From Dictyostelium discoideum (Eukaryota), in contig CM000153.2 of assembly GCA_000004695.1 (NCBI GenBank), forward strand, positions 5,120,001 through 5,184,000: a DNA stretch of 64,000 nt. Direction: 5' to 3'. The notes beneath the pieces are model-generated. The model was given only the letters and a program-made list of their open reading frames with translations, was not told the origin of the DNA and did no database searches. A program made the position numbers and the translations under genes. Position 1 is the stretch's first letter, and each line of letters begins with the position of its first letter. Shown in pieces: positions 2,887 through 63,581 of this stretch.

Positions 2887-3986
2887 AAAAAAAAAAAAAC
2901 ATAAAAAAGGAAAATAAGAGAGAAAATATACTATCAATTACAAATAATCACACTTAATCTCAACAATTAATTAAGATGTATAATTTAGATGTAAAAAAAA
3001 AAAAAAAAAAAAAATTTTTTCTTTTTTATATTTGTGCAGTGTGATTTGTAAATGTGGTTTTGTTTTTTTATCCAATAAAAAAATAGGTTTTGTTATACTA
3101 TATTCAAAAACTATTTATCAAACCATTTATAACGCCATTGATTAGAAAAAAAAAAAAAAAAAAAAAAAAAAAGAGTTAACTATAATAATCATTGGAAAAA
3201 AAAAAAAAAAAAAAAAAAAAAAATGAATTCATAAAAAAAAAAAAAAAACAAAAAAGAAAAAGAAAAAAAAGAATACTTTATTGGTATTGATTGTATTAGA
3301 TAAATTAAACTTTGAAATTGTTGATTTTGATTGATTGAACAGGGAGGGGGTTAACAAAATGGTTTCAATGAATTATAATTTAATACTTTTGTTTTTTTTA
3401 TTTTTTATTTTTTTAATTTTTTACATGTTAGATTTTTTTTTTTTTTTAATAAATAATACACATATGGCACATAGTGGTAGGATAAAAAAAAAAAAAAAAA
3501 TAAAAATCTTTTTTTTTTAATGTTACCCCAAATAGCAGTTACACTAAATCATACAAAAAGTAAGTTTATTAATTTTTTTTTTTTTTAAAAAAAACATTGT
3601 GGTAAATAACATATTTGTCATATAAAATTTTAAAAAATAATACAAAAAATAATAATTGGTGATTAAAAGATAATTTTTTTATTAAATTATATAAAAAATT
3701 AAAATTTTGCTACATTTTTTTAATGTTTTTTTTTTTTTAGTATAAATTAAATTCAAAATTTTTTTTTTTTTTTTTATTCAGTTATTAAAAATAAACAAAT
3801 TTTATATAATTTAATTAAATTTTATCTAAATACCAAAAAGTAAATATTATTTCTTTTATTATATTTTTAAAATTAATTTACTTATTTCTAATAATTTTTA
3901 TATTAATAAATTATTATTATTATAATTATTATTTTTTTTTTTTTTTTTTAAAATTAATTTTAGCTTTAAAGAAAAAATAAAATAAA

Positions 3987-4142
3987 ATGGGTAACGCTCC
4001 AAGCAGAACTGAACCAACTTGCGATAATTCAATTAATTTTATTATTCCAAAAGAAAACAAAAGTTATCAATGTTATCCAGAACAAGTAGAATCTAACCCA
4101 ATTGATTCTATAAATAGTGTATATTTTTATAAAACAACATAA
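3987..4142 (+). CDS. Possible small ORF (51 aa) starting MGNAPSRTEPTC, an N-myristoylation-like N-terminus
   Basis: ATG at 3987, TAA at 4140-4142. It is below the size cut-off of the ORF track. The MGxxxS consensus and non-homopolymeric codon usage stand out in an otherwise homopolymer-rich intergenic stretch. It may also be a first exon (GTATAT follows at 4127). Confidence 0.25.
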   Translation: MGNAPSRTEPTCDNSINFIIPKENKSYQCYPEQVESNPIDSINSVYFYKTT

Positions 4143-5246: not shown

Positions 5247-6362
5247 ATGAAAAAAGATATTATTTTAGTACTTTTAATAGTATTACATTTATTCTTTTTT
5301 GTTTCAATATTCGCAATTTCACCAAATTCAGAGATAAAACCACAAACAATAGACACCCAATCTTCAACTTTAACAACTTCCTCTACAACAACAACAACAA
5401 CCTCTTCACCAACAACAACCCCATTGGACATAAAACAACAACAATTAAAACAAAATATTATAGATAGTAATAATAATAATAAGATTAAAGAAGAAGAAAA
5501 AGAAAAATCAAAGAATGTTTATGTTACATTTGCAGATAATGCAGAATATTTAAAAGGTATAGTAGCATTAAGAATGTCAATGATAAATACAAAGTGCAAT
5601 TATGGATTGATTGTATTTGTCACTAAACAAGTTGAACAACAAGATAGGGAACCATTACAATTGTTAGATTGTGATGTTAGAGAGATTGAAATGGTTGATA
5701 TACCAAAAGAAGTGAGTGTCCAAATCGACAGATGGAGACCTGCTTTCACAAAGTTCAGAGCATGGCAATTGGTGGAGTATGAGCGTGTCATTTGGCTAGA
5801 TTCCGATATGTTGTTGTTGAAATCGTTGGATCACTTATTCGATTTGGTTGATATCGGCAACCCGAAATTACTATATGCTGCAATTGACGCAGATGCGAAT
5901 AGTTGTGTGTTCAATAGCGACCGTTTGAAATTAATAAATTCAGGTATAATGCTATTGTCACCATCGATTGATGTTTATAATCTGTTGATTGATGGAATGG
6001 TGGTAGTTAGTAAACTACCAAACCAGAGCACTGTAAACGACCAAGATGTGATCAATACCACTTTGCCACACTGGAGATCCTTGTCATATCCAGAGTATGG
6101 CGTTCAAATAACACATTGTGAATGCACGAGTGAGCCAAGACTTTGGAATTTTACAAATACTTATTTCTTACATTTCACTGCCGGTCTAAAAGAATTACCA
6201 AAACCATGGTCACTACTAAAGAAATCTCAAAATGAAGCTAAAGATATCTTTAAACAAATGCCAACTTGTATTGAACAAATTTATTTAAATTGGATTAATA
6301 CATATAAAGAAGCTTTAGATTTTATTGAAAATAAATTAAATTTAGTTAATTTAGTAAAATAA
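5247..6362 (+). CDS. Glycosyltransferase family 8 (glycogenin-like) type II membrane protein
   Basis: N-terminal hydrophobic signal anchor, Thr/Ser-rich stalk, then a GT-A catalytic core with YVTFADNAEY...WLDSDMLLL (DxD motif) typical of GT8 enzymes. Intronless, 371 aa. Confidence 0.75.
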   Translation: MKKDIILVLLIVLHLFFFVSIFAISPNSEIKPQTIDTQSSTLTTSSTTTTTTSSPTTTPLDIKQQQLKQNIIDSNNNNKIKEEEKEKSKNVYVTFADNAEYLKGIVALRMSMINTKCNYGLIVFVTKQVEQQDREPLQLLDCDVREIEMVDIPKEVSVQIDRWRPAFTKFRAWQLVEYERVIWLDSDMLLLKSLDHLFDLVDIGNPKLLYAAIDADANSCVFNSDRLKLINSGIMLLSPSIDVYNLLIDGMVVVSKLPNQSTVNDQDVINTTLPHWRSLSYPEYGVQITHCECTSEPRLWNFTNTYFLHFTAGLKELPKPWSLLKKSQNEAKDIFKQMPTCIEQIYLNWINTYKEALDFIENKLNLVNLVK

Positions 6363-6977
6363 AGAAATTTAAAATGAAAATAAAAATAAAAATAAAAATA
6401 ATATTTTAAACTAAAAATGTAAATATAAAAATAATAATTTTAAATTATTTTCTATTTTTTTTTTTTTAAAAATCTTTAAGCTTAAATCAAAAAAAAAAAA
6501 AAAAAAAATCAAAAAAAAAAAACTAAAAAATGTAAATTAATTCTATTTTTAGAATAATAAAATAATAATAAATAAATATAAAATAATAATAATTTTATAT
6601 TATTTTTTATTTTTTTTTTGGTTCAAATCACTTATTTTCGTTGATTGATTTTTTTTTTTTTCTATTTTTCAGTTTTATTTTTAAAAATCTGATTAATTTT
6701 TTTTTTTTTTTTTTTTAAATTTTTTTTAATTTTTTTTTTTTTTTTTTTTCTTAAAATCAAAACCAAAAACTTAAAATTAATATGGCAACTTAAAATAATT
6801 ATTTTTTTTATTTTTTTTTATTTTTTTATATTTTTTTACTCACTTTTTCTATTGCAATAATTTTTTTATTTTTTATTTTCCACCACATACATACACACAC
6901 ACTTCTTTTTTTTATTTTTATTTATTATTATTTATATATATATATAATATATATATAAATAATAATTAAAATTAAAT

Positions 6978-9900
6978 ATGGATAAAACTATAGAAATTGA
7001 AAAATTAATTAAAATATTAATTGAAAAACAAAAAGAAGAAGAGATTGATGTATCTGAATTATCAGAATCAATTAAAAAAGTTTCTAAATTTATTTTACAA
7101 AATAATTATCAAGATATTGAGAATCAAAAAGATGAAATTACCAATCAAGAAATTAGTAGATGGGTAACATCAGTTTGTACATTAAAACAAAGTATTGAAA
7201 TGATTGCTAAAAAAGTTGGAATAATGGGAGACTATTTACCAACCATTAGATTTGGTGTATCATGGATTGAAAAAGGTAGACCAATTCTAATTAGATTATT
7301 ATCAATTGAAAGTACACCAATGAAAACCATTAAAGAATTCATTCGTATGGCTAAAATATCAAGATTGGAATTGAATTCTAAAATACCCGATGATACTGAA
7401 GATGTTGAAAAATTACTCACATCTGATAGAGATCACTTTATCAATATTGAATCAATCATTCATAGAGTCATCAACTATGGTAAAAAAAATATGATTGAAC
7501 AAATTGATACATTACATTCAATGGGTGCAAGTTTGGAAGTTGTTCAATTCCAAGGATTTAATAAAAAAACACCATTGGATTGTTCGGTTGATATCGAGAA
7601 TTTAGAATTATTTAAATATTTAATAAACAAAGGTGCAGGTGAAAAAGCATTACATAATAATGTGAATTCATTCTATAAGAAACAACCTCAAGAGATTAAA
7701 GCAACTCTTAGACCATTCATAAAGAAACTTTTCTTAATCAATGCAAAAATTGCATGGAGATTAGCATTTGATGAAATTTTTACAACTAAACCAATGGCAA
7801 CTTCTGGTGGTAATAGATTATGTAAAACTGCAACAATGAATGATAGATATATTACACCAACAATTTATGAAATGATTTTTAATAATGATGGTACCCCAAG
7901 GAATAACAACGAGACCAATAGTACTGCCATTGGTGGTAGAGCCAGAGCCAGGCCAATAATGGAATCAAATGGTAATTTTTTAATTGCAAAATTTCAACCA
8001 CAATTCCCTGCAATGGAATTAATTACAATTAAACTCACTCAAAATTTATTTGGTGAAGCTGCACCATTTTCAGAGTTAATTAAAATTGATAACTATCCAA
8101 TTATTATCACTCAAAAAGTTGAGGGTGATATATTATCTGATTTAATTTCATCAACCAATCCAATGGATCATAATAAACTTTTAAACCTTGACACTTCATC
8201 AATGTCAAAATTGTTTGTATCGGAAATGATAATTAATTCTGCCAAAGGTTCATTCAATGATTTCATAGTATCACCAATTTTAAATCAAGATATCACTGAT
8301 GAAACACCTCAAAAATATAAATTGGTTAGAATTGAAAATGAACTATCATTTGTTCCATCATCACCAACACTATTGACTACATCAGCTTTACTATTTCTTG
8401 GTGGTAAAAATTCAGCATCAGTCAATTCATGTTTGTACCTTTTAAATGAAATGAATGATCAAGTTCATCAAGATGTAATTGACCGTTTCATTGGATTAGA
8501 TGTCACAACATTCCTAACCGATTGGTTATTTAGTGTATTAAATACTCATAATACATCATTAGATTTATTCGATCATAATCATGATTCAATTCAACATTTT
8601 AATATTGAAAATGATAAATCTTATGTTGGTGTATCATTACCATATGGCCAAATTCAATCACTTTATTCAAAATTGAATAGAATTAAAAATGTTCTCTCAA
8701 AGAAAAGATATTCTGGTAATTTAACTCATTGGCAATTATTAGAAATTATTGAACCATCAATTGCAAATATTTATAGACCATTTTTACCAAATTATCAACC
8801 ACCACCACCATCACAACTACCATCACAAACATTTAAAATGATTAAAGAGAAATTTATAGAATTTCAAAATAAATGTCATACTGAAACATTAACTTCTTCA
8901 TTCATTTATGAATCAAGAGGTATTGTAGTTAAAACTCAAAAACAACTCGAAATTGAAAGAAAAGAGTTATTAGTACTTGAAAAGAAAATTGAAGAAATAA
9001 AGAATTTAAAAAAAGAAAGAGATCCAATAACTGAAAGAAATTTTAAAAAATTAAATGAAAGAAAGAAAATTCTTGAAGATTCATTAACTGATGAAATTCA
9101 AGAGTTTGCTTCAATTAAAGAGGAAGTGAATCAACATGAACAATTACTTGAAAAGATTGAAAATGAATCACCAATTGAAACTATTTTAAGTGGTTTAAAG
9201 AAACAAGCAACATCACCATCACCATTATCAACCACAACTGGTGTTCAATGGGAAACTTTAATTGATAAAATCGATTTTTCAAAAGCAAATATCAATTCAT
9301 CATCATCATCAGATAATCATCAAATGATTTTAGATATTATTGGTTCAATTAAAGATTTACGTTTTTATCGTATTAAAAATAGTAATAAATTAACAATTGA
9401 CAGTTTTAGATCAAGTACATTACAATCAATAAATTCAATTAAGAAATTGTATATTACAAATTGTCAAACTTTATTAAACTTTCAAAATTCATCATTATTT
9501 GGTGGAAAATCATCATTGGTAATGACAGCATTAACTCATTTCAAAGTTGATCAATGTAAGAAATTAACAACCATTAAATTGGATGCACCAAATTTAGTAT
9601 CATTCTCTTCAACCAATTGTTCAGAATTGAGTGAATGGGATTTAAAAGCACCAAAATTAAGAAAATTAAAAATTCAAGCAAATAAAATCTCTACTCAAAC
9701 AATGTCAACTTTTGAAAAGAATTTCCCATTATTGAGTTATTTAGATATTAGTAGAATTGTTGCACCATCTTCAAAGAATGTTTTAACAATACTAGAACTA
9801 TCTCATTGGAAGAATTTAGAAACTTTAATTGCTGATGGAGTTGTTTCAATTGAAAAGATTTCAATCACAAATCAACTAAAAAAATTATCAACATTAAACT

Positions 9901-38044: not shown

Positions 38045-43167
<5,123 letters not shown>

Positions 43168-43321
43168 AGGTTGTTGTAAAAATTATAATAGTAATATAAT
43201 TCTATTTTTTATTCTTTTCTTTTCTTTTTTTTTTTTTTTATAAAAAAAATATTATTATCATTATTAGTTCTTTATTTATTTTTTTTTGTATTTTAAATAA
43301 TATCCATTTAGAAACTTAAAA

Positions 43322-43364
<43 letters not shown>

Positions 43365-43424
43365 TTTTATATAATTTATAATTTATTTTTCTATTATAAC
43401 AATATATTAAAAATTTTAATTTAT

Positions 43425-44927
43425 TTAATAATGGCCATGATGATGATGATCATTTATTCTTGAATAATTATGACGTTTTGTTTTAATGTATTTAGCTATA
43501 ATGAAAATAATTACAATACCGATGAATACAGAGAAACCTACAATTAGACCAAGAGCCCATTTTGGAAGTTTAGAATGAGATGATGTATCAATATCATAAA
43601 CATTGATATTCAATTGAATTGTATATGGATTTTGATTGTTTGTACTATAGATTGATGGTATATTAACTGAAACATATAAAGAATCTGAATCATAATTGCT
43701 TATTAAAGAAGAACCTGGATTTGGTAGCAATGAAAGATAAGCATGATTTGGTGCGGTTGTTTGATTAAAACTATAGATATCAGATAAACTAATAACCATT
43801 AAAGAGTTTTTACCATCTCCACTTGATAATGTGATTGAATTTGAAGTTTCAGAGAAAACATTTGAATATCCACTCATTGAGTCATGTTGATTCGATATTT
43901 TAAATATCATTGAATAAGTTGCACCACCACTAGTTGTATAATAAACAGTTGGTAAATAGTTGATATTAATAGTTGGAGTTAAAGTAATTGTGGCTGCTGA
44001 TGATGATAATGGTAAATAGGCACCTTTGTAATTTTCATAGCTAAATGATGGTTCCTCAACTGAAGTGAAGCCAACATCATATTGCAATTGGTTAAGCCAT
44101 GGTTTTGAAGATGGTTTACCATTTGTATAGGTTGTACCATCCAATGTAAAAGATAAACCAACTTTGCTTGATGAATTACCACTGACTGCATATTGTGATA
44201 ATTGACTAACCATGGAAATATCTGATGTTGAACCAGCAGGATTTGCAATGATATGTGATAGAACAACACTGAATTGCTCATTTGATGAACTCATTGAAAA
44301 TGTGTTAAATGCTTGGACTATTGGTGATGGTAATGAAGTTTGGTTATAAACTCTGACACTACAATCAAATGATGCTTGGTTTTGGTTACATCTACATGTA
44401 TTTCCAACATCACAGAAACCATTTTCTGAACAACCACTTGGACAACTACTGTTTGTGAATATATATTTACTAGTTCCTAATACTGGTACTGGTCCAACAG
44501 CAATTTGTTTTGTTGGAGTTTTTGATGGTGTTGGTGTTGGTACTGGAATTGGTGTATAAACCATTACAATTGCCAATGTTGTAAAGTTTACTGCATTTTT
44601 ACCACTATAATTATCTGATAATCTACATGTAATGGTTTCACCAATTGAATCAATTGTTAAACTATCATCACAATCTAATCCATATGAAATATTTGATCCT
44701 TCTTCTGGTACATTGAGTGAAACTTTAATTCCTTCTGTACTATTTAAACAAAAAATACCTTGAATAACAACTAAACTATTAATATTGTATGGGTTAACTT
44801 CTGAAACGCTAAAAATCTTTTGATGGCATTCACTTGATGATGATGATGACGATGATGTTGATGAGACAAAATAATTATTAAATGAAATGGATAGAATTAA
44901 AAGAAATAAAAGTATCTTTTTTTCCAT
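43425..44927 (-). CDS. Type I membrane glycoprotein with an EGF-like module
   Basis: Signal peptide (MEKKILLFLLILSISFNN), poly-Ser, an EGF-like motif (CPSGCSENGFCDVGNTCRCNQNQASFDC), a Ser/Thr-rich ectodomain with many N-x-S/T sites, one TM helix (LGLIVGFSVFIGIVIIFIIA) and a His-rich cytoplasmic tail. Confidence 0.7.
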   Translation of the reverse strand: MEKKILLFLLILSISFNNYFVSSTSSSSSSSSECHQKIFSVSEVNPYNINSLVVIQGIFCLNSTEGIKVSLNVPEEGSNISYGLDCDDSLTIDSIGETITCRLSDNYSGKNAVNFTTLAIVMVYTPIPVPTPTPSKTPTKQIAVGPVPVLGTSKYIFTNSSCPSGCSENGFCDVGNTCRCNQNQASFDCSVRVYNQTSLPSPIVQAFNTFSMSSSNEQFSVVLSHIIANPAGSTSDISMVSQLSQYAVSGNSSSKVGLSFTLDGTTYTNGKPSSKPWLNQLQYDVGFTSVEEPSFSYENYKGAYLPLSSSAATITLTPTININYLPTVYYTTSGGATYSMIFKISNQHDSMSGYSNVFSETSNSITLSSGDGKNSLMVISLSDIYSFNQTTAPNHAYLSLLPNPGSSLISNYDSDSLYVSVNIPSIYSTNNQNPYTIQLNINVYDIDTSSHSKLPKWALGLIVGFSVFIGIVIIFIIAKYIKTKRHNYSRINDHHHHGHY

Positions 44928-45454
44928 TTTTTTAATTTATTTTACACTAAAAAAATAAATAATTGAAAAAAAAAAATTAAAAATATAAATGTTAAAAAAA
45001 AAAAAAAAAAAAAAGATATTTTAGAAAAATCACTGGTATCACGTATTTTTTTGGGTTGAAAATTTTGGAAATTTAGGTATGAAAAATTCCGATAAAAAAA
45101 AAAAAAAAAAAATTGTTTAGTGGAGATTTTTTTTTTTTTTTTTTTCATAACTTTATGCCATCCTGTTATATTTTATTTAAATTAAGAATTTTTTTTTTTT
45201 TGGCCATTATTAGTTTTTTTTGAATTGGATAGTTGTAGTCTGCTTCTCTTTGAGATTTTTTTTTTTTTTTTACAGACCTTGAATTAAAAGTGTTTGGAAA
45301 GGGTTTGAAAAGGGATTATCAATTTTTATTTCTTTTTTAATAGAATAATAGAAATAGTGTTTATTAAAAAAAATAATAAAAATAATTATTTTATTTTTAA
45401 ACAATAATTTGGATACTTCAGTGTGCACCATAGTTTAATTAAAAATAATCGATT

Positions 45455-45489
<35 letters not shown>

Positions 45490-45800
45490 AATTGGATAAC
45501 GCAATTATTATTTGCTTCTCCTTGAGATGCTAGATCTCATTTTATTTTTTTTTTTTTTTTACAGGGTCTTTTTGATTAAAACATCTTTTTTGTCCAAACT
45601 TTTTTCTAAATCTTTTTTTATTTTATCGTCTGGTTCGTGATTGATGTTTATGACGTATTTGAATTGTTTTTTTTTTAATTGAGTTTTATCCACAATTTCG
45701 CTTATTTTTTGTAGGCATTTGTGTTGCTTAATATTTGTGGTGTTGTTTGTGATTTTCATTTTATTTTCTTTCTATCTTTTTTATTTTTCTGATTAACTTG

Positions 45801-45842
<42 letters not shown>

Positions 45843-46319
45843 TTATAGAAAGTACTGAGTGAATTATTGTATTTTTTGAGATGTTTAGGAAGTTCTATTG
45901 CGGGTGTTGATGATGATTTGTGACACCCCTTGTCCTGTTTTATCAATTGGTGCGTGGTGTGTTATTTTGTTTTTATATTGTTGATTTATTGAGTAAATTT
46001 TATTTGTTTTTATATTTGTTTCAGTTAGAAGTGCTGCGTCCAGCTTGTTGTTGTCTAAAACGGTGTTTATTATGCTGGCAGATTGGATGGTATTGGATCC
46101 TTGGACGTTCCAAACACCTATTCTTATTGTGTTTTTCTTTATAGTTTTATTTGGGGTAGATTTTTATCTACCTTTTGAAGTTTCTGGTTTATTTTGTCTT
46201 CTAACTGATCTTTACTTTGTTCATTGTGTTGTTGGTCTTGTGTGTTTGTGGGGTTTTTTGATTTATTGATTTGTTTTAGAATTTCCTTGTTGAAGTTGTC
46301 TATATCTTCATCCATTTTT

Positions 46320-46419
46320 NNNNNNNNNNNNNNNNNNNNNNNNNNNNNNNNNNNNNNNNNNNNNNNNNNNNNNNNNNNNNNNNNNNNNNNNNNNNNNNNN
46401 NNNNNNNNNNNNNNNNNNN
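46320..46419. other. Assembly gap (100 N)
   Basis: A run of exactly 100 N. Sequence 45856-46319 before the gap matches 46420-46883 after it at a constant offset of 564. Confidence 0.95.
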
Positions 46420-46702
46420 TGAGTGAATTATTGTATTTTTTGAGATGTTTAGGAAGTTCTATTGCGGGTGTTGATGATGATTTGTGACACCCCTTGTCCT
46501 GTTTTATCAATTGGTGCGTGGTGTGTTATTTTGTTTTTATATTGTTGATTTATTGAGTAAATTTTATTTGTTTTTATATTTGTTTCAGTTAGAAGTGCTG
46601 CGTCCAGCTTGTTGTTGTCTAAAACGGTGTTTATTATGCTGGCAGATTGGATGGTATTGGATCCTTGGACGTTCCAAACACCTATTCTTATTGTGTTTTT
46701 CT

Positions 46703-48037
46703 TTATAGTTTTATTTGGGGTAGATTTTTATCTACCTTTTGAAGTTTCTGGTTTATTTTGTCTTCTAACTGATCTTTACTTTGTTCATTGTGTTGTTGGT
46801 CTTGTGTGTTTGTGGGGTTTTTTGATTTATTGATTTGTTTTAGAATTTCCTTGTTGAAGTTGTCTATATCTTCATCCATTTTTGTTTTTATGCTTTTTTG
46901 TCCATATTCACCCAATTTTGGTTTGACTGGTGTTTTGTTGGTCTTGTTTGTTTTGTCTTGTTGTTTCTTTTTTGGTGTGTTTAACAATTTACTTGGTGAA
47001 TCGATAATTTTCGATGGTGTACCATAGGTTGGGCTGAAACTCATGATATGTTTTATTGGAGAGGAGAAGAACCATTGATTTGAAGGGATTGAAAGTGGGA
47101 ATTCTATTTTTCTTATTGCATCAGTGTTTGGGCTGGTGAAGTCGAAGATATCATTTGCCTCTCTAAGTTTTTCTTCCGTTGTTAGTCCCTTTGTTTCGCC
47201 GTGTTGTTTTATTGGTGTATTGTATGGAGATGGTGGTTCGATAGGTTTTTCTGATTTTGTTTTAATTTCTTGATTGTTTATCGATTGTGTATTGATCTCA
47301 TTCTCTATTCTTGTTAGTTCATCTACGTTTTCTAGTGATGCTTCTATTACCTTTTGAGCTGTATCATCTAGGGCCATAAATGTTTTATCATTAGATGAGG
47401 ATGTGATTGGTGGGATAATGATTGTTCTTTTTCCTTGTTTTGGTATTTGTTCTGATGTAGATTGTGGTTGTTGTTCATCTGATTGTTTTTTATTTTTGTT
47501 TTCTTCTTGATTTTCTGGTAATGAGGTTTGATCTCTCCATCCTTTGTTGGAGTGTCCAATTAATGTTAGATTGTCTAGTTCAATGATAGTGTCAAATTCT
47601 TCTACGACTCTTTTCACTGTTTTGATAATTAGAGTTTCGCCTTTAATTTCTGATTTAATTAGTTTACATCCTTCATTTTCTATTACCCATTCTATTTCTG
47701 TGAGTGATTTATACCAATCAAAATCTGTATACATATTTTTTGGTCTTATAGTGGTTATAAATTGTCCTTTTAATTCTGCATCAAACATATTTACAAAATA
47801 GATTACTGTACTAATACTGTCTGTGAGAATTTTGAATGTATTATTACTTTTGATTAAAACATCTTTTTTGTCCAAACTTTTTTCTAAATCTTTTTTTATT
47901 TTATCGTCTGGTTCGTGATTGATGTTTATGACGTATTTGAATTGTTTTTTTTTTAATTGAGTTTTATCCACAATTTCGCTTATTTTTTGTAGGCATTTGT
48001 GTTGCTTAATATTTGTGGTGTTGTTTGTGATTTTCAT
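46703..48037 (-). CDS. Retroelement ORF1 protein (444 aa), TRE5-A-like
   Basis: Intact ORF. Its first 63 codons recur at 45563..45759 and its last 60 codons at 46139..46318. The product is basic and Ser/Thr/Lys-rich, as expected of ORF1 proteins. Confidence 0.65.
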   Translation of the reverse strand: MKITNNTTNIKQHKCLQKISEIVDKTQLKKKQFKYVININHEPDDKIKKDLEKSLDKKDVLIKSNNTFKILTDSISTVIYFVNMFDAELKGQFITTIRPKNMYTDFDWYKSLTEIEWVIENEGCKLIKSEIKGETLIIKTVKRVVEEFDTIIELDNLTLIGHSNKGWRDQTSLPENQEENKNKKQSDEQQPQSTSEQIPKQGKRTIIIPPITSSSNDKTFMALDDTAQKVIEASLENVDELTRIENEINTQSINNQEIKTKSEKPIEPPSPYNTPIKQHGETKGLTTEEKLREANDIFDFTSPNTDAIRKIEFPLSIPSNQWFFSSPIKHIMSFSPTYGTPSKIIDSPSKLLNTPKKKQQDKTNKTNKTPVKPKLGEYGQKSIKTKMDEDIDNFNKEILKQINKSKNPTNTQDQQHNEQSKDQLEDKINQKLQKVDKNLPQIKL

Positions 48038-48112
48038 TTTATTTTCTTTCTATCTTTTTTATTTTTCTTTAAAAAGTTAAAAATCTGGAAATTTTCTAAT
48101 TAACTTGGTTCC

Positions 48113-48156
<44 letters not shown>

Positions 48157-48271
48157 TCTTTTTTATATGAAAAATGAAATAATCAAAAAAAGAGATTGTT
48201 GTTGTTGTTTGTTTTTTTCGATCTCCAAAATAATCGATTTATTTTGCTATTAAAATTTTTATTTCATCCAA

Positions 48272-48354
48272 AGCAAGGGTAGGAAAGTCTGGTTAAATCC
48301 GTGTGACTTAAGATCTCATCCATTCGGTTCGCGAGTTCGAATCTCGCCTCTTGC
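48272..48354 (+). tRNA. tRNA-Leu (anticodon UAA), class II with a long variable arm, 83 nt, no encoded CCA
   Basis: Manual cloverleaf fold. The 7-bp acceptor stem GCAAGGG/CTCTTGC includes one G-U pair, with discriminator A. U8 and A9 are present. The D-stem is 3 bp, with GG in the D-loop. The anticodon loop is CTTAAGA (anticodon TAA, U33 present), on a 5-bp stem with one U-U mismatch. The variable stem-loop is CC-ATTC-GG. The T-arm is GCGAG-TTCGAAT-CTCGC. Confidence 0.8.
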
Positions 48355-48391
48355 AATGTTTTCTTAATTTCAATTATTCGATTATTGGTTC

Positions 48392-48402
48392 AATTCTTTA
48401 AT
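48392..48402 (+). promoter_or_regulatory. Candidate external B-box (ex-B) downstream of the tRNA gene
   Basis: GGTTCAATTCT lies 38 bp downstream of the tRNA 3' end and resembles the internal B-box GGTTCGAATCT of the same tRNA. Dictyostelium tRNA genes commonly carry an extra B-box about 30-40 bp downstream. Confidence 0.4.
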
Positions 48403-48407
48403 GAAAC

Positions 48408-48656
48408 AATATACAAATTAAATAACAGAGACCAATTAATAATCAACTTCAACACATCATGGCATAACCCGAACACTCCAAACCCAATTCCATTATAATA
48501 AAAAAAAAAAAAAAAAAAAAAAACAAGTAGTAGTAATCATAATATAACCAAAAATATCAACATATAACAATATAAAAATTTAAAAATTTAAAAATCTAAA
48601 AATTTAAAAATGTAATAAAATATAACAATACACCGCTTTTAGGTAAAAAAAAAAAA
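48408..48656 (+). mobile_element. Two tandem poly(A)-terminated fragments, possibly 3' ends of a downstream-targeting tRNA retroelement, flanked by a 16-bp direct repeat
   Basis: GGTTCAATTCTTTAAT occurs at 48392-48407 and again at 48657-48672. Between the two copies lie two segments, each ending in a long A-run (48497-48520 and 48645-48656). The first segment has unusually C-rich sequence (ggcataacccgaacactccaaacccaattcc). Confidence 0.3.
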
Positions 48657-49135
48657 GGTTCAATTCTTTAATTTTAAATCCAAGGTTTCATAGGTTTTTG
48701 TTACATAGTTGCACATGTTAACCACTATGCTGTGCCCATTTTTATGAGCTTAAAGATTACCCGTAGTCTAGAATCAAATCAAAAAAACCGCCAAAACCAA
48801 CCAAACACCCAAAAAAAAAAACTGGCGAACCTATTGGATGGATACAAAATTAACATAAAAAAAAATTCTCCCTCAAACAAATCAATAGAACCCGACTAAA
48901 CCACGATTAGCATTATTTTTAAAAATATAATCCATAAATAAACTTTTAGCTATTGTAAATTTATTCACTTAAATGGATAAACTCTAAAAAAAAAAATTAA
49001 AAAATAAAAGATAAAAAATTTGTATTACTTGAATTAATACTGTTACAGAAGAAATGTTTTATTAATTTTTATTTTTTATTTATTTTTATTTTTTTAATAA
49101 TTTTTTATCTTTTTATTATTTTTATAATTATTTCA

Positions 49136-49177
<42 letters not shown>

Positions 49178-49197
49178 AGGGCATTGGATAATTATTT

Positions 49198-50721
49198 TTA
49201 AGAACAATAATTATCCCAATTAAAATTAATAACATTTGAAAAGAGAGATTTAAAAAGTTGATAATTACAAAAGATATCATTACAGCCTGGTATTAAAATT
49301 GGTGATTCATTGTGTTCAACCAAAATTTTAAAATCATTTTCTCCACCACAATCATATAAAAACATTACTAAATTTGTAGAGTAAGGAACTATAACACTTG
49401 TTTTAAAATTTCTATTAATAATTTGATTTGAAGTTAAATTTGCAAATAAATGGTATTCATCTTTAAATAAACCCAATAAAGACATTAATGGTATTACAGT
49501 TTCTGAATGAGCAAATCTTAATATATTTTTTGGATATTTATTATTATCAATTGAAAATTCATCATTATTTTCTTCATCTTTATTATCATTATCACTATTA
49601 CTATTATTATTACTATTATTATTTAAATTAATTATTGAATCAAAATGATTAAAAATATCTTTTAATAATGGTGAAGAAATTTCATAATTAATTTTATTAC
49701 CATAACTACTTAACCAATAATCATCCAAATCTTTTGAATATTCTAAATCCAAAATATTTTGTTTATTTAATAGACTACACCAATGATTTGTAATATTTCC
49801 AATGGCAACATCATAAACACATGATAAAAATATTGTATTAATTATTGAATTTGAAAGTTCCCAATCATTGAGATTTGAATTTGGTATACCTAATCTTTTT
49901 TTAATTTCAATTCCAATTGATGGATATTTCATTTGTTTCCAAATTTCTCTTTCATTGTCATTAATTGATTGATCTCGTAAAGCATTGTTATATTTATCAC
50001 AATTTAAAAAGAAACTTAGTAAAATATCTTTATCAAGTGTTGAAGTTTCAATATGAACCGGTTGAAAATTATCACCCAAAACTCCAGTTCCTTCAAATAA
50101 TCCATAGGCGAAAGATGAAGCACTAACTCCAGTACGAGAAATAATAGTTGATGAAATCTTTGTAGTTTGTGGTTTATAATTTCCAAAATAATTTGGAAAT
50201 CTTTTTAAAAATCTTTTTGAGAGATGGTAATGTTCCAATTGGCCTTGAGTTAATAAATTTCCTGCGATTTCAATTTTATAAGGAACAGTGTAATTTTTTA
50301 ACCAACCAAATTCTCCATCATTTTCAATGTATTTATTAATTTTTAAAATTTCATTTTGTAATTTTTTCATTTTTTTAATAACAGATGCTTCTGGCATTCT
50401 TGAACCATGACGACCAATAAAATCAATTGAAATTAATTTACATTGTTGTTGTTGTTGTTTAAAATTATTATTATTATTTTCATCTTTTTTTATAAAATGA
50501 TTTGATTTATAATATGGTGTTTTAGTTGTTAAATGTTTAATTAAAAAATTAAAATCATAATTTTGATATTCTCCAAATGTTATTTCTTTTTGTTTTTGGA
50601 AAATATCATTATTAATTTTAATTTGATTAAAAACTTTTAAATTATTTTTTTCAATTTGGCACCATATTAAATTAAAATTTATTAATAAATAAATAAATAT
50701 TATTAAAAAAATAATTTTCAT
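49198..50721 (-). CDS. Secreted histidine acid phosphatase (histidine phosphatase superfamily branch 2, MINPP-like)
   Basis: Signal peptide. RHGSRMP matches the RHGxRxP catalytic signature (IGRHGSRMPEAS). The C-terminal HSET resembles the HD/HAE proton-donor motif (RFAHSETVIPL). Intronless, 507 aa. Confidence 0.75.
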   Translation of the reverse strand: MKIIFLIIFIYLLINFNLIWCQIEKNNLKVFNQIKINNDIFQKQKEITFGEYQNYDFNFLIKHLTTKTPYYKSNHFIKKDENNNNNFKQQQQQCKLISIDFIGRHGSRMPEASVIKKMKKLQNEILKINKYIENDGEFGWLKNYTVPYKIEIAGNLLTQGQLEHYHLSKRFLKRFPNYFGNYKPQTTKISSTIISRTGVSASSFAYGLFEGTGVLGDNFQPVHIETSTLDKDILLSFFLNCDKYNNALRDQSINDNEREIWKQMKYPSIGIEIKKRLGIPNSNLNDWELSNSIINTIFLSCVYDVAIGNITNHWCSLLNKQNILDLEYSKDLDDYWLSSYGNKINYEISSPLLKDIFNHFDSIINLNNNSNNNSNSDNDNKDEENNDEFSIDNNKYPKNILRFAHSETVIPLMSLLGLFKDEYHLFANLTSNQIINRNFKTSVIVPYSTNLVMFLYDCGGENDFKILVEHNESPILIPGCNDIFCNYQLFKSLFSNVINFNWDNYCS

Positions 50722-50725
50722 TGTT

Positions 50726-50764
<39 letters not shown>

Positions 50765-51000
50765 ATATAATTTAAATAAATTAATAATTTAAAAAATTAT
50801 AAGATTCCAAAATTTTTTAAAAAAAAATTATTTAGAATTTTTTATTATATATTTTAAAATAGATATTTAAATGTAAAGTTATTTTTAAAAAATAAAATGG
50901 ACCACCATAAAAATTTTCAAGATATTAGTTTTAAATTAAAAAACAGGCATTTTTTTTTTTTTTTCCCTTTTAAAGTTACTAGATTTTTTATCTAAAAAAG

Positions 51001-51047
<47 letters not shown>

Positions 51048-51362
51048 AAAAATTAAAAAATAAAAACAATTCTCCATTTCCAAAGTTATTTTAATAAAAG
51101 CATGATGTAAAAAAAAAATTATCCGTTTTCAAAGATTTGTTTTTATTTTTATTGTGAATATATAATAAAAAAAAATAAAAAAAAATAAATAAAAAATTAA
51201 TAGTGACAATTTATAAAACAATTATATCTTTTTATCTTTTTTATTTTTTTTATTTTATTTATTTTATTTATTTATTTATTTATTTTATTACTTTCTTTTT
51301 TATTTTATTTATGTTTTTTTTTTTTTTTTTTTTTTATTTTTTATTATTTATTATTGTTATTA

Positions 51363-51593
51363 TTATTTTTGTTCTCTTAATTGTTTATATAAATTTGTAG
51401 TTATATCCAAACGTTTTTGAGCATTTTCGAATTTGGTATTAGCTTCGGCAAGGGAGGCTTGTAATTGTTTATTTTGATTTGAGATGACATCATAACGAGC
51501 TTTACCTTCATCGATTTGATCTTGAAGAGATTGAATATCATCAGCTTTAATTTCACCATTACCATTAGCATTACCATTTTCAGTGTTACTGTT

Positions 51594-51624
<31 letters not shown>

Positions 51625-54437
51625 TTAATAATATTATTTAAATCTTGAATTTGAGTTTTTAATTGATCGATTTCAGTTTGTTTTTCAAAAGTAACAGATA
51701 AGAACTCAGCGTTTTTATTTTCTAAATCTTGTTGTATTTGAGAAACCTTTGAATCTTGTTCAGATTGTTTAGAGGTAATTTGTTGTAACTCTTGATCCTT
51801 TGAAGTTAATTCATCTTTAACAGATTGTAACTCTTGATCTTTTGAAGATAATTGATCTTTAGTTGATTGTAAATCTGAATCTTTTGAGGATAATTGATCT
51901 TTAACTGATTGTAAATCTGAATCTTTGCTTGATAATTGATCTTTAATTGATTGTAATTCTGAATCTTTTGAAGATAATTGATCTTTAGATGATTGTAACT
52001 CTGAATCTTTAGTTGATAATTGATCTTTAATTGATTGTAATTCAGAATCTTTGCTTGATAATTGATCCTTAGTTGATTGTAACTCTGTATCTTTAGCGGA
52101 TAATTGATCAGTGGTTGAAGATTGACAAGATAATTGATCTTTAGCAGATTGTAACTCTTGATCTTTAGTTGATAATTGATCTTTGGTTGATTGTAACTCT
52201 TGATCTTTTGAAGATAATTGATCTTTAGTTGATTGTAATTCTTGATCTTTTGAAGATAATTGATCTTTAACAGATTGTAAATCAGATTCAATTGATTTAA
52301 TTTGAGTGTCTTTATTTGATAATTGTTCATCTTTTGAAGATAATTGATCTTTGGTTGATTGTAATTCTTGATCCTTTGAAGATAATTGATCCTTAACAGA
52401 TTGTAAATCAGATTCAATTGATTTAATTTGAGAGTCTTTATTTGATAATTGTTCATCCTTTGATTTTAATTCTGAATCCTTGGATAAAAGTTGATCTTTT
52501 ACACTTGATAATTCTGAATCAGTGTTTGATGATTGTGATGAGAGTTGTTCCTTAACACTTGATAACTCTGACTCTAAGCATTTCAATTGTTCATCTTTTG
52601 AAGATAACTCTGAATCTTTTGATTGTAATTGTTGTTGTAAATTGAGTTCAATAGATTTCAATTTTTCATCTTTTGACTCGTTATGTTCTGATTGTTGTTC
52701 AAGTTGAGATTTAACATCTTGTAATTGTTGAAGAGTTTGTTGTAAAGTGAGTTCAACAGATTTCAATTTTTGATCTTTTGATTCACTATCTTCAGATTGT
52801 TGTTCAAGTTGAGATTTAACATTTTGTAACTCTTGATCTTTTGATTGTAATTGTTGGAGGGTTTGTTGTAAATTGAGTTCAACAGATTTCAATTTTTCAT
52901 CTTTTGATTGACTATCTTCAGATTGTTGTTCAAGTAAAGCAGATTGTTTCTTTGAAGTCTCAAGTAACTCTGAATCCTTTGATTGTAATTGATTTTGGAG
53001 TTTTTCAAATTCAGATTGTAATTGGCTCAACTCGGTGATCTTTGATTGTAATGCTTGAGATTCAGTGGATTGATTAGAGGCGAGTTGTTGCTTCAATTGA
53101 CTGATTTCATTTTGTAAATTATTGGTGGTGGTTTGTTGTTCAGATTGTTTTGCCTCTAATTGGTCAACGAGTTTTTCAATTTGGAAATCTTTTTCATCAG
53201 TGATATTTTTATTCATTTTCTCGTACATCTCTAAACGTTCAAGCAATTCAGCTGTACGTTTCTTTTCGTCTTCGTAGGAACGAATCAATTCGGTCTCTTT
53301 GGTGGTGAAACCATTGGTGGCTCTGGTTAACTCTCCAATCTTGGTTTCTTTTTGTGATAATACATTGGTTAAATCATCGACTTTCTCTGTGAATGATGAT
53401 ACTTGTTGTTGAAGTATTACAATTTGTTGTTGATATTTTTGTACCATTATCTCCTTCTCTGCTGAAATATTTGAAAGTTCACTTTGTAATTCAGTGATCT
53501 CTTTCTTTAAATTGGTAGTAGTAGTAGTATTATTACCACCATTTAATGTATAATTATATTGTTGTAAATCATTAGTTGATTGATTAATTGGTGAATTTGA
53601 TTCTGGTGTTTTTTGTTGTGTGGTGGTTGATTTATTTAATTCGATTTGTTGTTCTAATCTCTTTATTTTCTCTAATAAAGTAGTTTCAATATTTTCTTTA
53701 TTGGTGATTTCTTTTTTGTGAGAATCATTCAATAAATTGATTCTAATACTTGATTGTTCTCTTTCTTTTTCAAGTTGATTCTTAATTTCATTGATACTGG
53801 ATTTAAGATTTGAAATTTTTTCAAATTCTGTTGGTGCTGTTTTAACTGTTTTCCAAGTACCATCATTAAAATTGGTTGGTTCTTCTTCTATAATGACATT
53901 TGTAGTGGTGGTGGTAGTATTTTTGATTGGTTGTTTTACTGGTGGTTGTTCAACTTTAGTTGCTTGTTTCTTTGGTGGTGGTTGTTCAACAACTTTCTTT
54001 GGTTCTGCTACTTTCTTTGGTTCCTCTACTTTCTTTGGTTGTTCGACAACTTTCTTTGGTTCTGCTGCTTTCTTTGGTGGTTGTTGTTTTTCAACAACTT
54101 TCTTTGGTTCCTCTACTTTCTTTGGTTGTTGTTCAGTGACAGCTGGTTTAACGACTACTGGTTCAACTACTTTTGGTGATTCAACCTTTACAGTTTCTGA
54201 TTTAACCTCAACTGGTTTGGATGGTTGTTCTTTCTTTTTCTTTTGAGTGGTTGTTTGTTTGGTTGGTTGTTGTTGTTGTTTTTTATTAGTTTTTGATTGT
54301 TTTGGTGTGTTGTTATTAATTGTTTGTTGTTTGGCTAATGCTCCATCAAATATACGTTTTGGTTTGACAACGAAAAATTGATAGAAAAAGTAACCTGCAA
54401 CACAAGCCACAACTGTTAAAACTAATGCTCCTATCAT
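51363..54437 (-). CDS. Membrane-anchored long coiled-coil protein with a Pro/Lys-rich PKKVEEP repeat region and about 20 tandem 14-aa KDQLSSKDxELQS repeats
   Basis: The 1052-aa ORF 51363..54521 begins in homopolymer-derived codons. The likely start is the internal ATG at 54437 (MIGALVLTVVACVAGYFFYQFF, a TM anchor). Heptad-rich coiled-coil sequence runs through the protein (LEKEREQ..., KIGELTRATNGF..., QLQSKDSELLETSKKQ...). Confidence 0.65.
51770..52570 (-). repeat. Tandem 42-bp coding repeats (KDQLSSKDSELQS[IVT]) within the coiled-coil gene
   Basis: The nucleotide units are directly visible (gataattgatctttagttgattgtaactctgaatctt and variants). They also create spurious overlapping ORFs on both strands (51806..52456, 52522..52707). 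Confidence 0.85.
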
Positions 54438-61313: not shown

Positions 61314-63581
61314 GCAAGTATTTCTTTCATACAACCATTTAAATTAGGTCCAAAAAAAAGAGAACTCGAGCTTATCGGGGAACAAAAATTCCAGATATCT
61401 CCACTGGACTCACCAAAAGATAGGGTCTTAAAAGAGGAAGTTGAAACCTTACAAAAGAATCACACAAAAACTGAAACCCCATCAACTCAAACAATTCAAG
61501 TATCTGAACCAATTCAATCAAATCAACACCAGTATACTTCAACCAAACGACAAAAACTGGAACTAAAACAATTACCAGCTCGACCACAATCCTCAAAATA
61601 CCCCATACATTCACATCAAAAGTCAATTGATTCACAGATACAATTAAAACTACAAAGTCTACAACAAACAAAACAACAAATGCATACCCAACCATTACTA
61701 AAATATCAACAACCCCAAAAAGCTCAACCCCAAAAAGCTCAACCCCAAAAAGCTCAACCNNNNNNNNNNNNNNNNNNNNNNNNNNNNNNNNNNNNNNNNN
61801 NNNNNNNNNNNNNNNNNNNNNNNNNNNNNNNNNNNNNNNNNNNNNNNNNNNNNNNNNNNACAAGCACAACAATTCGTGAAATCTCAGCAACAACCACAAT
61901 ACACACAACAATACACCTATGGTTATCAAAATCCATATGGAGATCTTCCATATCAACAGCCATTCCCTTATCATACACAATATCAATATCAACCCCAAAT
62001 TCATTACCAAGCCTATCAACCACACTCATATCAATACTATCAATACCCTCCACAATATCCAGCCTATCACTACCCACAACCATATGGTGATCAATATCAA
62101 CAATCCCAACAGTTGCAAGCTCAACAATCACAAACTCAAGCGCAACTTCCAAACACCCAGGACCAAACCCAAAGAGATATTTTATCACTTCCTCAACCAA
62201 TAAAACAGGAACCATATTCAAATAACCAAGTACCATCCCCTCATCCAGAAGCAAATTCACCTACTGTTCTTGACGGAGCTCAAAATATTATTAACCAAGA
62301 ACTTCAAAATTCAAATAATAATAATAATAATAATAATAATAGTGAAAATGATGCAATTATATTAATAAAAACGCCATCACCCATAGTTGATATATCACCA
62401 CCACTATCAGCACCTATAGGTCTAAAAAGAAAATCTTTTGTACCTAAATCCTCAAAAAAAAATATCCAAATTTACAAAACTTATTCAAAAGATTTATTGG
62501 GTCCAATTCAACAAATTGAATTAATTAAGGGATTTAATGAAGAACTACAACAACAACAAAATAATGAAGAAGAAATTTATAATTCATCATTTTGTTTTTT
62601 AAATTGTTCAACAAAGAGGTTCTTTACTGTTAATAGTCAAGGTGTTTATAGTGAAGCTTGTGAATTAAAAATTGATAGTTTCGATATTAGTGCTATTGAA
62701 GGTTTGAAATTGGCCTTGTTAAGAGATCATTCCATACTATTGCTAGGTAGAGGATCTAAAACTCTTGTTTCTTTTCAACTTCCAGGTTTTGTCTCACCAA
62801 GGTACTTAAAGACTGCTCAAGATAATACTAGAGCCATTGAAACAATTCATTCTTGTTCATCAAAATCATTGCTTTATACATCGTTTAGAGATGGTACTTT
62901 AACATTAGAAAAATTTTCTAATCAAGACAGTAACTTTGGATTAGGTTTTGTAAGTAAAGTTAAAGAAAATGAAATAATAACCTCTTTAACCTCAACGAAA
63001 ACAAATATAATATGCTTTTCACCAAGATATATCTCTGTTAGAACTTTGGAAACTTTACAAAAATTAACTGAGTATGTATCTGAAAAACCATTTAAAATGG
63101 TTAGATCTTGCATAGATAAGTATTTAATTGTAGATGATCAAAATATTATGACTGTTTATAATGGATTGAATTGTACTCAAATTTTCACCAGAGTCTTAAA
63201 TGAGGATATTAATGAAATTTCTTTTCTTGTAAGTTTTTAATTTATTTTCTTTAAAATATTGTTTTTTTTAAAATTTTAAAATCAAATTAATATTTTTTTA
63301 AAAATAATTAATAATTTATAATTTATAAAAATTAATTAATAATTAATAATTAATAATTAATAATAAATAATAATTATAAAAAAAAATAGGGAAGCGATAA
63401 TATTGTTTTGTGTCAAAAGGGATTATTTAAGATTTTTTCCTGTGATCAAACATTTATAGAGCAAACATCACATCAACTTGAGGAAAATGAATATGTCACT
63501 GCAATTTCATCACCAGATAATACTACCCTCTTGATTGCAACAAACATTCAATCAAAGTGTTATCACTGTAAATATAAATAA
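59444..63581 (+). CDS. LisH/CTLH-domain protein with long poly-N and poly-Q tracts and a Q/Y/P-rich region; exons 59444-59760, 59851-60324, 60437-63228 (contains an assembly gap), 63390-63581
   Basis: The LisH motif (LNELKEYVKVALDIFYQLGYNNSFK) is split by a phase-2 intron (GTATGT at 59761, AG at 59849-59850). A CTLH-like helical region follows (FYFDLKLFKKYIEVGNFEESEKYL...LYLHHFIEQLESKNLSEAEKIL). A second phase-2 intron has GTATGT at 60325 and a poly-T tract ending CACTAG at 60436. The last intron has GTAAGT at 63229 and AG at 63388-63389. The reading frame across the N-run 61760-61859 cannot be determined. Confidence 0.55.
61760..61859. other. Assembly gap (100 N) inside a coding repeat
   Basis: The N run is preceded by three tandem copies of ccccaaaaagctcaa (encoding PQKAQ). 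Confidence 0.95.

Follow-up and report, generated by a model that had tools for sequence, protein, structure and literature searches.

A TRE5-A.2 retrotransposon next to a tRNA-Leu(UAA) gene of Dictyostelium discoideum: probably one insertion and an unmerged contig overlap

The TRE5-A non-LTR retrotransposons of Dictyostelium discoideum insert upstream of tRNA genes with a strict orientation, the element's 5′ end being directed toward the tRNA gene's 5′ end, and target-site duplications (TSDs) are formed as they integrate (PMC5391098). Spaller et al. (2017) found that 47±3 bp upstream of tRNA genes is where about 80% of the tagged integrations lie, and likewise 59% of the reference copies (PMC5391098). 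The TRE5-A.1 form has the modular structure AB-ORF1/ORF2-BC (Siol et al., 2011; PMC3159450); its B-module, 290 bp long, holds the ORF1 translation start and is duplicated from the 5′ untranslated region (UTR) into the 3′ UTR (PMC3159450). TRE5-A.2, the non-autonomous derivative with the structure AB-ORF1-BC, has a large deletion of ORF2 and a 72-bp deletion in BC, with the final 87 bp of the C-module left in place (PMC3159450). Here we analyse an element of this family in a 64,000-nucleotide stretch of the D. discoideum genome (contig CM000153.2 of assembly GCA_000004695.1, positions 5,120,001 to 5,184,000 of the forward strand), which is called the window below and whose numbering is used throughout unless a related locus is named. 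A first-pass annotation of this sequence had described, between two copies of a 19-mer upstream of a tRNA-Leu gene, a composite array of at least three TRE5 pieces. With a probability of roughly 0.9, the bracketed region is instead one TRE5-A.2 copy, (A)B-ORF1-BC, in reality about 2.2 kb long, inserted once at 46 nt upstream of the tRNA-Leu(UAA) gene and split in the assembly by an unmerged contig overlap. It is a known element in a known place combined with an assembly artefact.

The target-site duplication was located by a scan of the window, whose GC content is mostly 15–30%. The 19-mer AAAATAATCGATTTATTTT occurs as two exact copies on the plus strand, at 45442–45460 and 48227–48245. When up to two mismatches were allowed, the scan returned 3 matches against 0.16 expected, a number reached in 0 of 100 shuffles. 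The duplication itself had been recognized in the first-pass annotation, which placed its left copy 20 bp too low (45422–45440) and its right copy 1 bp too high (48228–48246). A run of 28 T, also noticed there, directly follows the left copy (45461–45488); the T run spans 45457–45488 in full, and the final four T of the left copy could just as well be counted with the element's poly(A) tail, which gives a TSD of 15–19 bp. On the other side, the tRNA-Leu(UAA) gene predicted by ARAGORN (48273–48355, plus strand) is the sole tRNA gene of the window, is transcribed away from the element and contains an exact match to the published Leu(UAA)rev primer at 48333–48354. It starts 27 nt past the right 19-mer, and 46 nt separate its position 1 (48273) from the element's 5′ end (48226). 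These spacings correct those first given for the tRNA-Leu gene, whose presence downstream of the right 19-mer is borne out. The element and the tRNA gene lie on opposite strands, the element's 5′ end facing the tRNA gene, a geometry found in the other TRE5-A copies as well; the first proposal of a minus-strand TRE5-type element at about 50 bp upstream of a tRNA gene was therefore correct, the element being a TRE5-A at 46 nt.

The empty site was found through an exact-sequence lookup of a neighbouring 500-aa protein (43425–44927, minus strand). This led to the orthologous locus (L010) in another D. discoideum assembly, GCA_054883475.1, record CM142510.1, where the distance between the 500-aa gene and the His_Phos_2 gene is 1484 bp, as against 4270 bp in the window. 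The window aligns to L010 on both sides of the element, 42001–45460 with 9918–6470 and 48227–52000 with 6488–2743. The two alignments overlap in L010 by exactly 19 nt, and these are the 19-mer, present there only once (6470–6488) and running straight into the same 27 nt and then into tRNA-Leu(UAA). One flank carries 0 substitutions in 3.46 kb and the other 2 in 3.77 kb, all remaining differences being indels. Because the two flank alignments overlap by precisely the 19-mer, everything between its two copies can be read as one insertion, with the 19-mer as its TSD. This comparison with another strain, which the first-pass annotation had proposed, thus upholds the target-site duplication and contradicts repeated integration into the same tRNA target, since it shows one insertion with one TSD. 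Judged from the two nearly identical genomes, the insertion is young and polymorphic. The hallmarks of target-primed reverse transcription are present, namely a tail of 28 A, a TSD checked against the empty allele and an extra GG at the 5′ junction.

The family was identified through ORF1. As first described, a complete reading frame of 444 aa is intact on the minus strand at 46703–48037; it encodes a protein of 51.3 kDa, and the TRE5-A ORF1 protein has been published as a 51-kD protein (PMC5911963). D. discoideum AX4 has several annotated entries with exactly this protein, GCA_054883475.1 carries it at no fewer than 11 places, and several AX4 "hypothetical proteins" are 99% identical to it. 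The database entries are unnamed, and the link to the family was made through matches to published primers. The TRE5-A ORF1 primer Rep-109 matches exactly at 47565–47593, and the first 16 nt of primer Rep-108 match exactly at 47917–47932 (both from PMC4559204). At loci L002 and L003, ORF1 copies with 98–99% DNA identity to that of the window are followed by a 1047-aa ORF2 with an RVT_1 domain, and this ORF2 is matched by the published TRE5-A ORF2 primer Rep-75. A Pfam scan found no domain in ORF1, which agrees with the literature on TRE5-A ORF1, a protein type that does not resemble other ORF1 proteins, and is uninformative. On these matches, and on the architecture described below, we assign the element to TRE5-A, subform TRE5-A.2.

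Read from its 5′ end on the minus strand, the element begins with two extra G (48225–48226), templated by neither the A unit nor the target, and with a leader of 71 nt (48154–48224) identical to positions 1–71 of the 199-bp A unit of other copies. The 5′ B-module follows (47827–48153), delimited by copy alignments and the published description (PMC3159450); it consists of an oligo(A) of 37 nt (48117–48153) and of 290 nt (48116–47827) that contain the ORF1 start codon at 48037. The A/B boundary used here was set from the surveyed copies and not from the original module definition. Past the ORF1 stop codon, 237 nt (46466–46702) lead to the TRE5-A.2 deletion junction at 46466, which is duplicated at 45902 across an assembly gap. 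Up to 46466 the window is collinear with the TRE5-A.1 copy at L003. Just downstream of the junction lie 61 nt of the 3′ end of the ORF2 region (45841–45901), identified by alignment to L003: window 45902–45803 aligns to L003 4897–4997, the end of the 1047-aa RVT_1 ORF2. The junction, at position 1761 of the merged element, accordingly aligns to both L003 1763 and L003 4897, and the roughly 3.1 kb between these two points, with ORF2, are absent. The 3′ B-module (45570–45840) includes a leading oligo(A) of 38 nt (45803–45840) and is 88% identical to 47848–48154 over 307 columns, with an exact repeat of 221 bp (45570–45790 = 47848–48068). At the B/C boundary about 70 nt (L003 5273–5342) have no counterpart in the window, within a few nucleotides of the published deletion. 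The 81 nt of C-module that are left (45489–45569) align to the C end of TRE5-A.1 in L003. They contain predicted hairpins, with z = −3.1 for RNA hairpins in the last ~55 nt, and represent the 3′ end needed for retrotransposition; in TRE5-A generally, the hairpins are formed by the last ~54 nt of this module. Counting back from the 3′ end, C38, A35, C26 and T15 correspond to the residues mutated by Siol et al. (2011). The poly(A) tail of 28 A (45461–45488) closes the element; other copies end in CCAATTC followed by 10 to 27 A.

This architecture accounts for most of what had looked like separate pieces. The repeat of the 5′ end of ORF1, first taken for a piece of its own, is the canonical 3′ B-module of AB-ORF1-BC (PMC3159450). 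The oligo(A) that heads the 5′ B-module is also visible in L001, and eight other copies align along the full length of both A-run regions. Because they do so, the long internal A runs (48117–48153 and 45803–45840) are read as the heads of the two B-modules and not as the 3′ ends of separate pieces. The claim of at least three pieces, each ending in poly(A), fails on the same ground, these runs being internal to the element with neither target DNA nor an extra TSD between the supposed pieces. The repeats that the claim relied on (221 and 464 bp) and the absence of ORF2 are real.

The second of these repeats flanks a scaffold gap of 100 N (46320–46419), whose size is unstated. A stretch of 464 bp at the end of the left contig (45856–46319, minus strand), which extends from the ORF2 remnant through the deletion junction and the inter-ORF region into the final 181 nt of ORF1, is identical at 464 of 464 positions to 46420–46883 at the start of the right contig. 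The two copies adjoin the N run directly, with no base between either of them and the gap. In nine copies that encode an identical ORF1 (L001–L009), the same stretch is single-copy: the locus ranges matched by window 48224–46420 and by window 46319 to about 45475 share these same 464 bp. Because it is single-copy in nine other copies and abuts both gap edges, the 464-bp repeat is almost certainly, to judge from the alignments, an unmerged contig overlap, and the true distance across the gap is probably negative. What had been described as a separate repeat of the 3′ end of ORF1 coincides with the gap edges and is single-copy in the nine other copies. Once the overlap is merged, the element measures 2202 nt, and eight other TRE5-A.2 copies can be aligned along the whole of its 2172-nt core with 0–3 mismatches and 5–12 gap columns. 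Between the end of the right contig and the 38-nt A homopolymer lie only 15 nt, a plausible point of read failure. As far as the comparison of sequences goes, only a single element is present, the very outcome that the first-pass annotation had set against its own array.

The best surviving alternative is that the gap hides real extra sequence, for example two tandem TRE5-A.2 copies, with the 3′ end of one and the 5′ part of the other inside the gap, or a genuine internal tandem duplication, so that the 464-bp repeat would itself be real. The unstated size of the gap leaves space for this, and tandem TRE5-A copies are found elsewhere (L002, L003, L023, L033 and L034); moreover, copies that differ by 0–3 substitutions in 2.2 kb would be expected to share 464 identical base pairs even if they were separate. 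Nevertheless, each repeat copy terminates precisely at its edge of the gap, as is characteristic of an overlap; the stretch occurs once in 9 of 9 reference copies; and the homopolymer just beyond the end of the right contig offers a plausible cause of read failure. Two independent insertions within a single outer TSD would also need reuse of the same nicks or recombination. We consider hidden sequence improbable. A full-length TRE5-A.1 inside the gap was considered separately and is excluded, since both contig ends hold the TRE5-A.2-specific deletion junction (46466 and 45902). A second gap of 100 N in the window, at 61760–61859, lies inside an ORF of short coding tandem repeats (…CCCCAAAAAGCTCAA…), and the sequences on its two sides show no overlap, so that gaps in this window do not as a rule stem from unmerged overlaps.

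The weakest alternative is the composite array itself, at least three TRE5 pieces with their own poly(A) ends, laid down by repeated integration at one tRNA gene: such integration does occur in this genome (L002), the window has two internal repeats and, on the strand of the element, three long runs of A, and a diverged C-module-like remnant outside the TSD (45213–45280) suggests that the tRNA gene may have been targeted before, yet an array is highly improbable given that only one TSD pair and one empty site exist and L010 lacks the whole block, that no target DNA or further TSD lies between the supposed pieces whereas the genuine tandem in L002 gives the inserted element its own TSD, GATTAATCACCAAT, that every TRE5-A.2 copy examined shows the B repeat and the internal A runs, in line with the published AB-ORF1-BC, that the third "piece" is a gap-edge duplicate, and that the merged element runs collinear to eight other copies of TRE5-A.2.

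The 5′ end of the window copy was compared with those of 24 other copies. In these, the 5′ region consists of 199-bp A units that start with AGATCG and are arranged head to tail; next come a partial unit (roughly nt 1–71), an oligo(A) and the B-module. The arrays are about 1 to 21 units long. They start at unit position 1 in 17 of the 24 copies and at position 7 or 8 in six. In the window the 5′ end reads GG followed by AGATCG, with the 71-nt partial unit only and zero complete units. An extra G precedes AGATCG in 10 of the 17 position-1 starts (L005, L006, L009, L018, L019, L021, L024, L029, L031 and L032), at a place where the array-internal base is C; the window has GG there (48225–48226). 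Non-templated 5′ nucleotides are frequent in TRE5-A (PMC5391098). The extra G is compatible with the pattern expected from copying a capped transcript to its end.

A complete A-module (200 bp, the plus-strand promoter of TRE5-A) is absent from the window copy, which probably leaves it without a full promoter of this kind and argues against a role as self-transcribing source element. It is conceivable, although on balance doubtful, that transcription starts at position 1 of any A unit, the terminal partial one included, and that arrays shed units on retrotransposition and so give rise to promoter-poor copies. The same 5′ end could possibly have arisen after insertion, if recombination between the 71-nt repeats removed one 199-bp unit, or could possibly be a coincidental 5′ truncation. 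The minimal 5′ end and the recurrent junction G together offer a small lead on where transcription of the A-module starts. DRE/TRE5-A was reportedly described by Marschalek et al. in 1992 as carrying one or several A modules (AnB). In the long-read assembly the longest arrays reach about 19–21 units, which corresponds to roughly 4 kb of promoter repeats; very long arrays are located at L006 1628–5905, L026 1029–4809, L021 2817–4904, L027 2827–4906, L001 4226–5812 and L007 4217–5905.

Several points weigh against the reading of the locus as a single typical TRE5-A.2 insertion. The 19-bp repeat exceeds the 10–16 bp of TSDs in de novo TRE5-A events (PMC9012585), unless its terminal TTTT is counted as tail; the TSDs of other TRE5-A copies are 13–15 bp. 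The 5′ end is atypical, none of the 24 other copies (0/24) combining a start at position 1 with zero complete A units; 5′ deletions are described in the literature as typical of TRE5-A, so that a missing complete A-module is compatible with membership in the family. The size of the gap is formally unstated, and TRE5-A.2 copies are about 99.9% identical, so that 464 identities out of 464 would by themselves be no proof that the two stretches are the same DNA. Finally, mobilisation in trans and targeting through TFIIIB are taken from the literature.

According to published work on the family, the RNA of the element would be bound by its own ORF1 protein, and this protein would contact TFIIIB on the tRNA gene. 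The ORF2 protein of a full-length TRE5-A.1 could then act in trans, nick the target and reverse-transcribe from the C-module/poly(A) end. A polymorphic insertion between near-identical genomes, of an element that lacks ORF2, is indirectly consistent with mobilisation in trans. The apparent internal repeats would have three sources: the B-module, which normally stands at both ends of the element, the long oligo(A) that normally heads each B-module, and the two contigs at the 100-N gap, which would overlap by 464 bp and have been left unmerged.

For annotation, the locus should be described as one 2.2-kb TRE5-A.2 insertion and not as an array. Merging the 464-bp overlap would probably close the gap at 46320–46419 and shorten the locus by 564 bp. 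The absence of the insertion from a near-identical genome fits the published picture of an active TRE5-A population and provides a clean pair of filled and empty sites.

Other elements were observed in the window and at related loci. Outside the TSD, the minus strand carries at 45213–45280 a diverged 3′ end that resembles a C-module (CTGTA15...ATCTCAAAGAGAAGCAGACTACAACTATCCAATTC followed by A8) and is shared by the two alleles; it is without the hairpin arm of the TRE5-A C-module, and no TSD around it was seen by eye. An earlier insertion of TRE5-A or TRE5-C, likewise upstream of this tRNA gene, may have left it behind. On the other side of the tRNA gene, a 16-bp exact direct repeat, GGTTCAATTCTTTAAT, at 48387–48402 and 48657–48672 brackets a block of 254 bp (48403–48656) that ends in A12. 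This block begins 31 bp downstream of the gene for tRNA-Leu, on the same strand, is also present in L010 within a continuous alignment, and looks like a short, 5′-truncated TRE3-type insertion with its own TSD. A BLAST search of the element against the whole window found no further element copies, the matches outside the element being homopolymer or low-complexity sequence. At L002 the target is doubly occupied (5436–8017, and 8032 onward), a TRE5-A.2 with the TSD GATTAATCACCAAT lying between tRNA-Val(UAC) and an older full-length TRE5-A.1. L004 carries three tRNA-Ser(GCU) genes within 6 kb (3941–4023, 5476–5558 and 9693–9775), TRE5-A C-end matches at 7982 and 9904, and repeated flank motifs (ggtgtcat...aaaatggg), which suggests a locally duplicated tRNA/TRE block.

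Among known systems, mouse LINE-1 elements offer an analogy only: their 5′ monomer arrays resemble the head-to-tail A units and partial unit of TRE5-A, but the sequences and hosts are unrelated, and the window copy carries the partial unit only. The autonomous TRE5-A.1, 5.7 kb long, shares with the window copy the A, B and C modules and ORF1, with 98.5% DNA identity between window 48224–46466 and L003 6–1763; it differs by the ~3.1 kb that hold the 1047-aa ORF2 with its APE, RT and ZF parts and by the ~70 nt at the B/C boundary, both of which the window copy lacks. Closest is TRE5-A.2, formerly a DRE subform. The window copy departs from it at the 5′ end, where it has GG and the first 71 nt of an A unit as against about 1 to 21 units in the 24 surveyed copies, and agrees with it in the ORF1 sequence, in the B-module on both sides of ORF1, in the loss of ORF2, in the ~70-nt BC deletion with the 3′ part of the C-module kept, in the poly(A) tail, in the TSD and in integration upstream of a tRNA gene.

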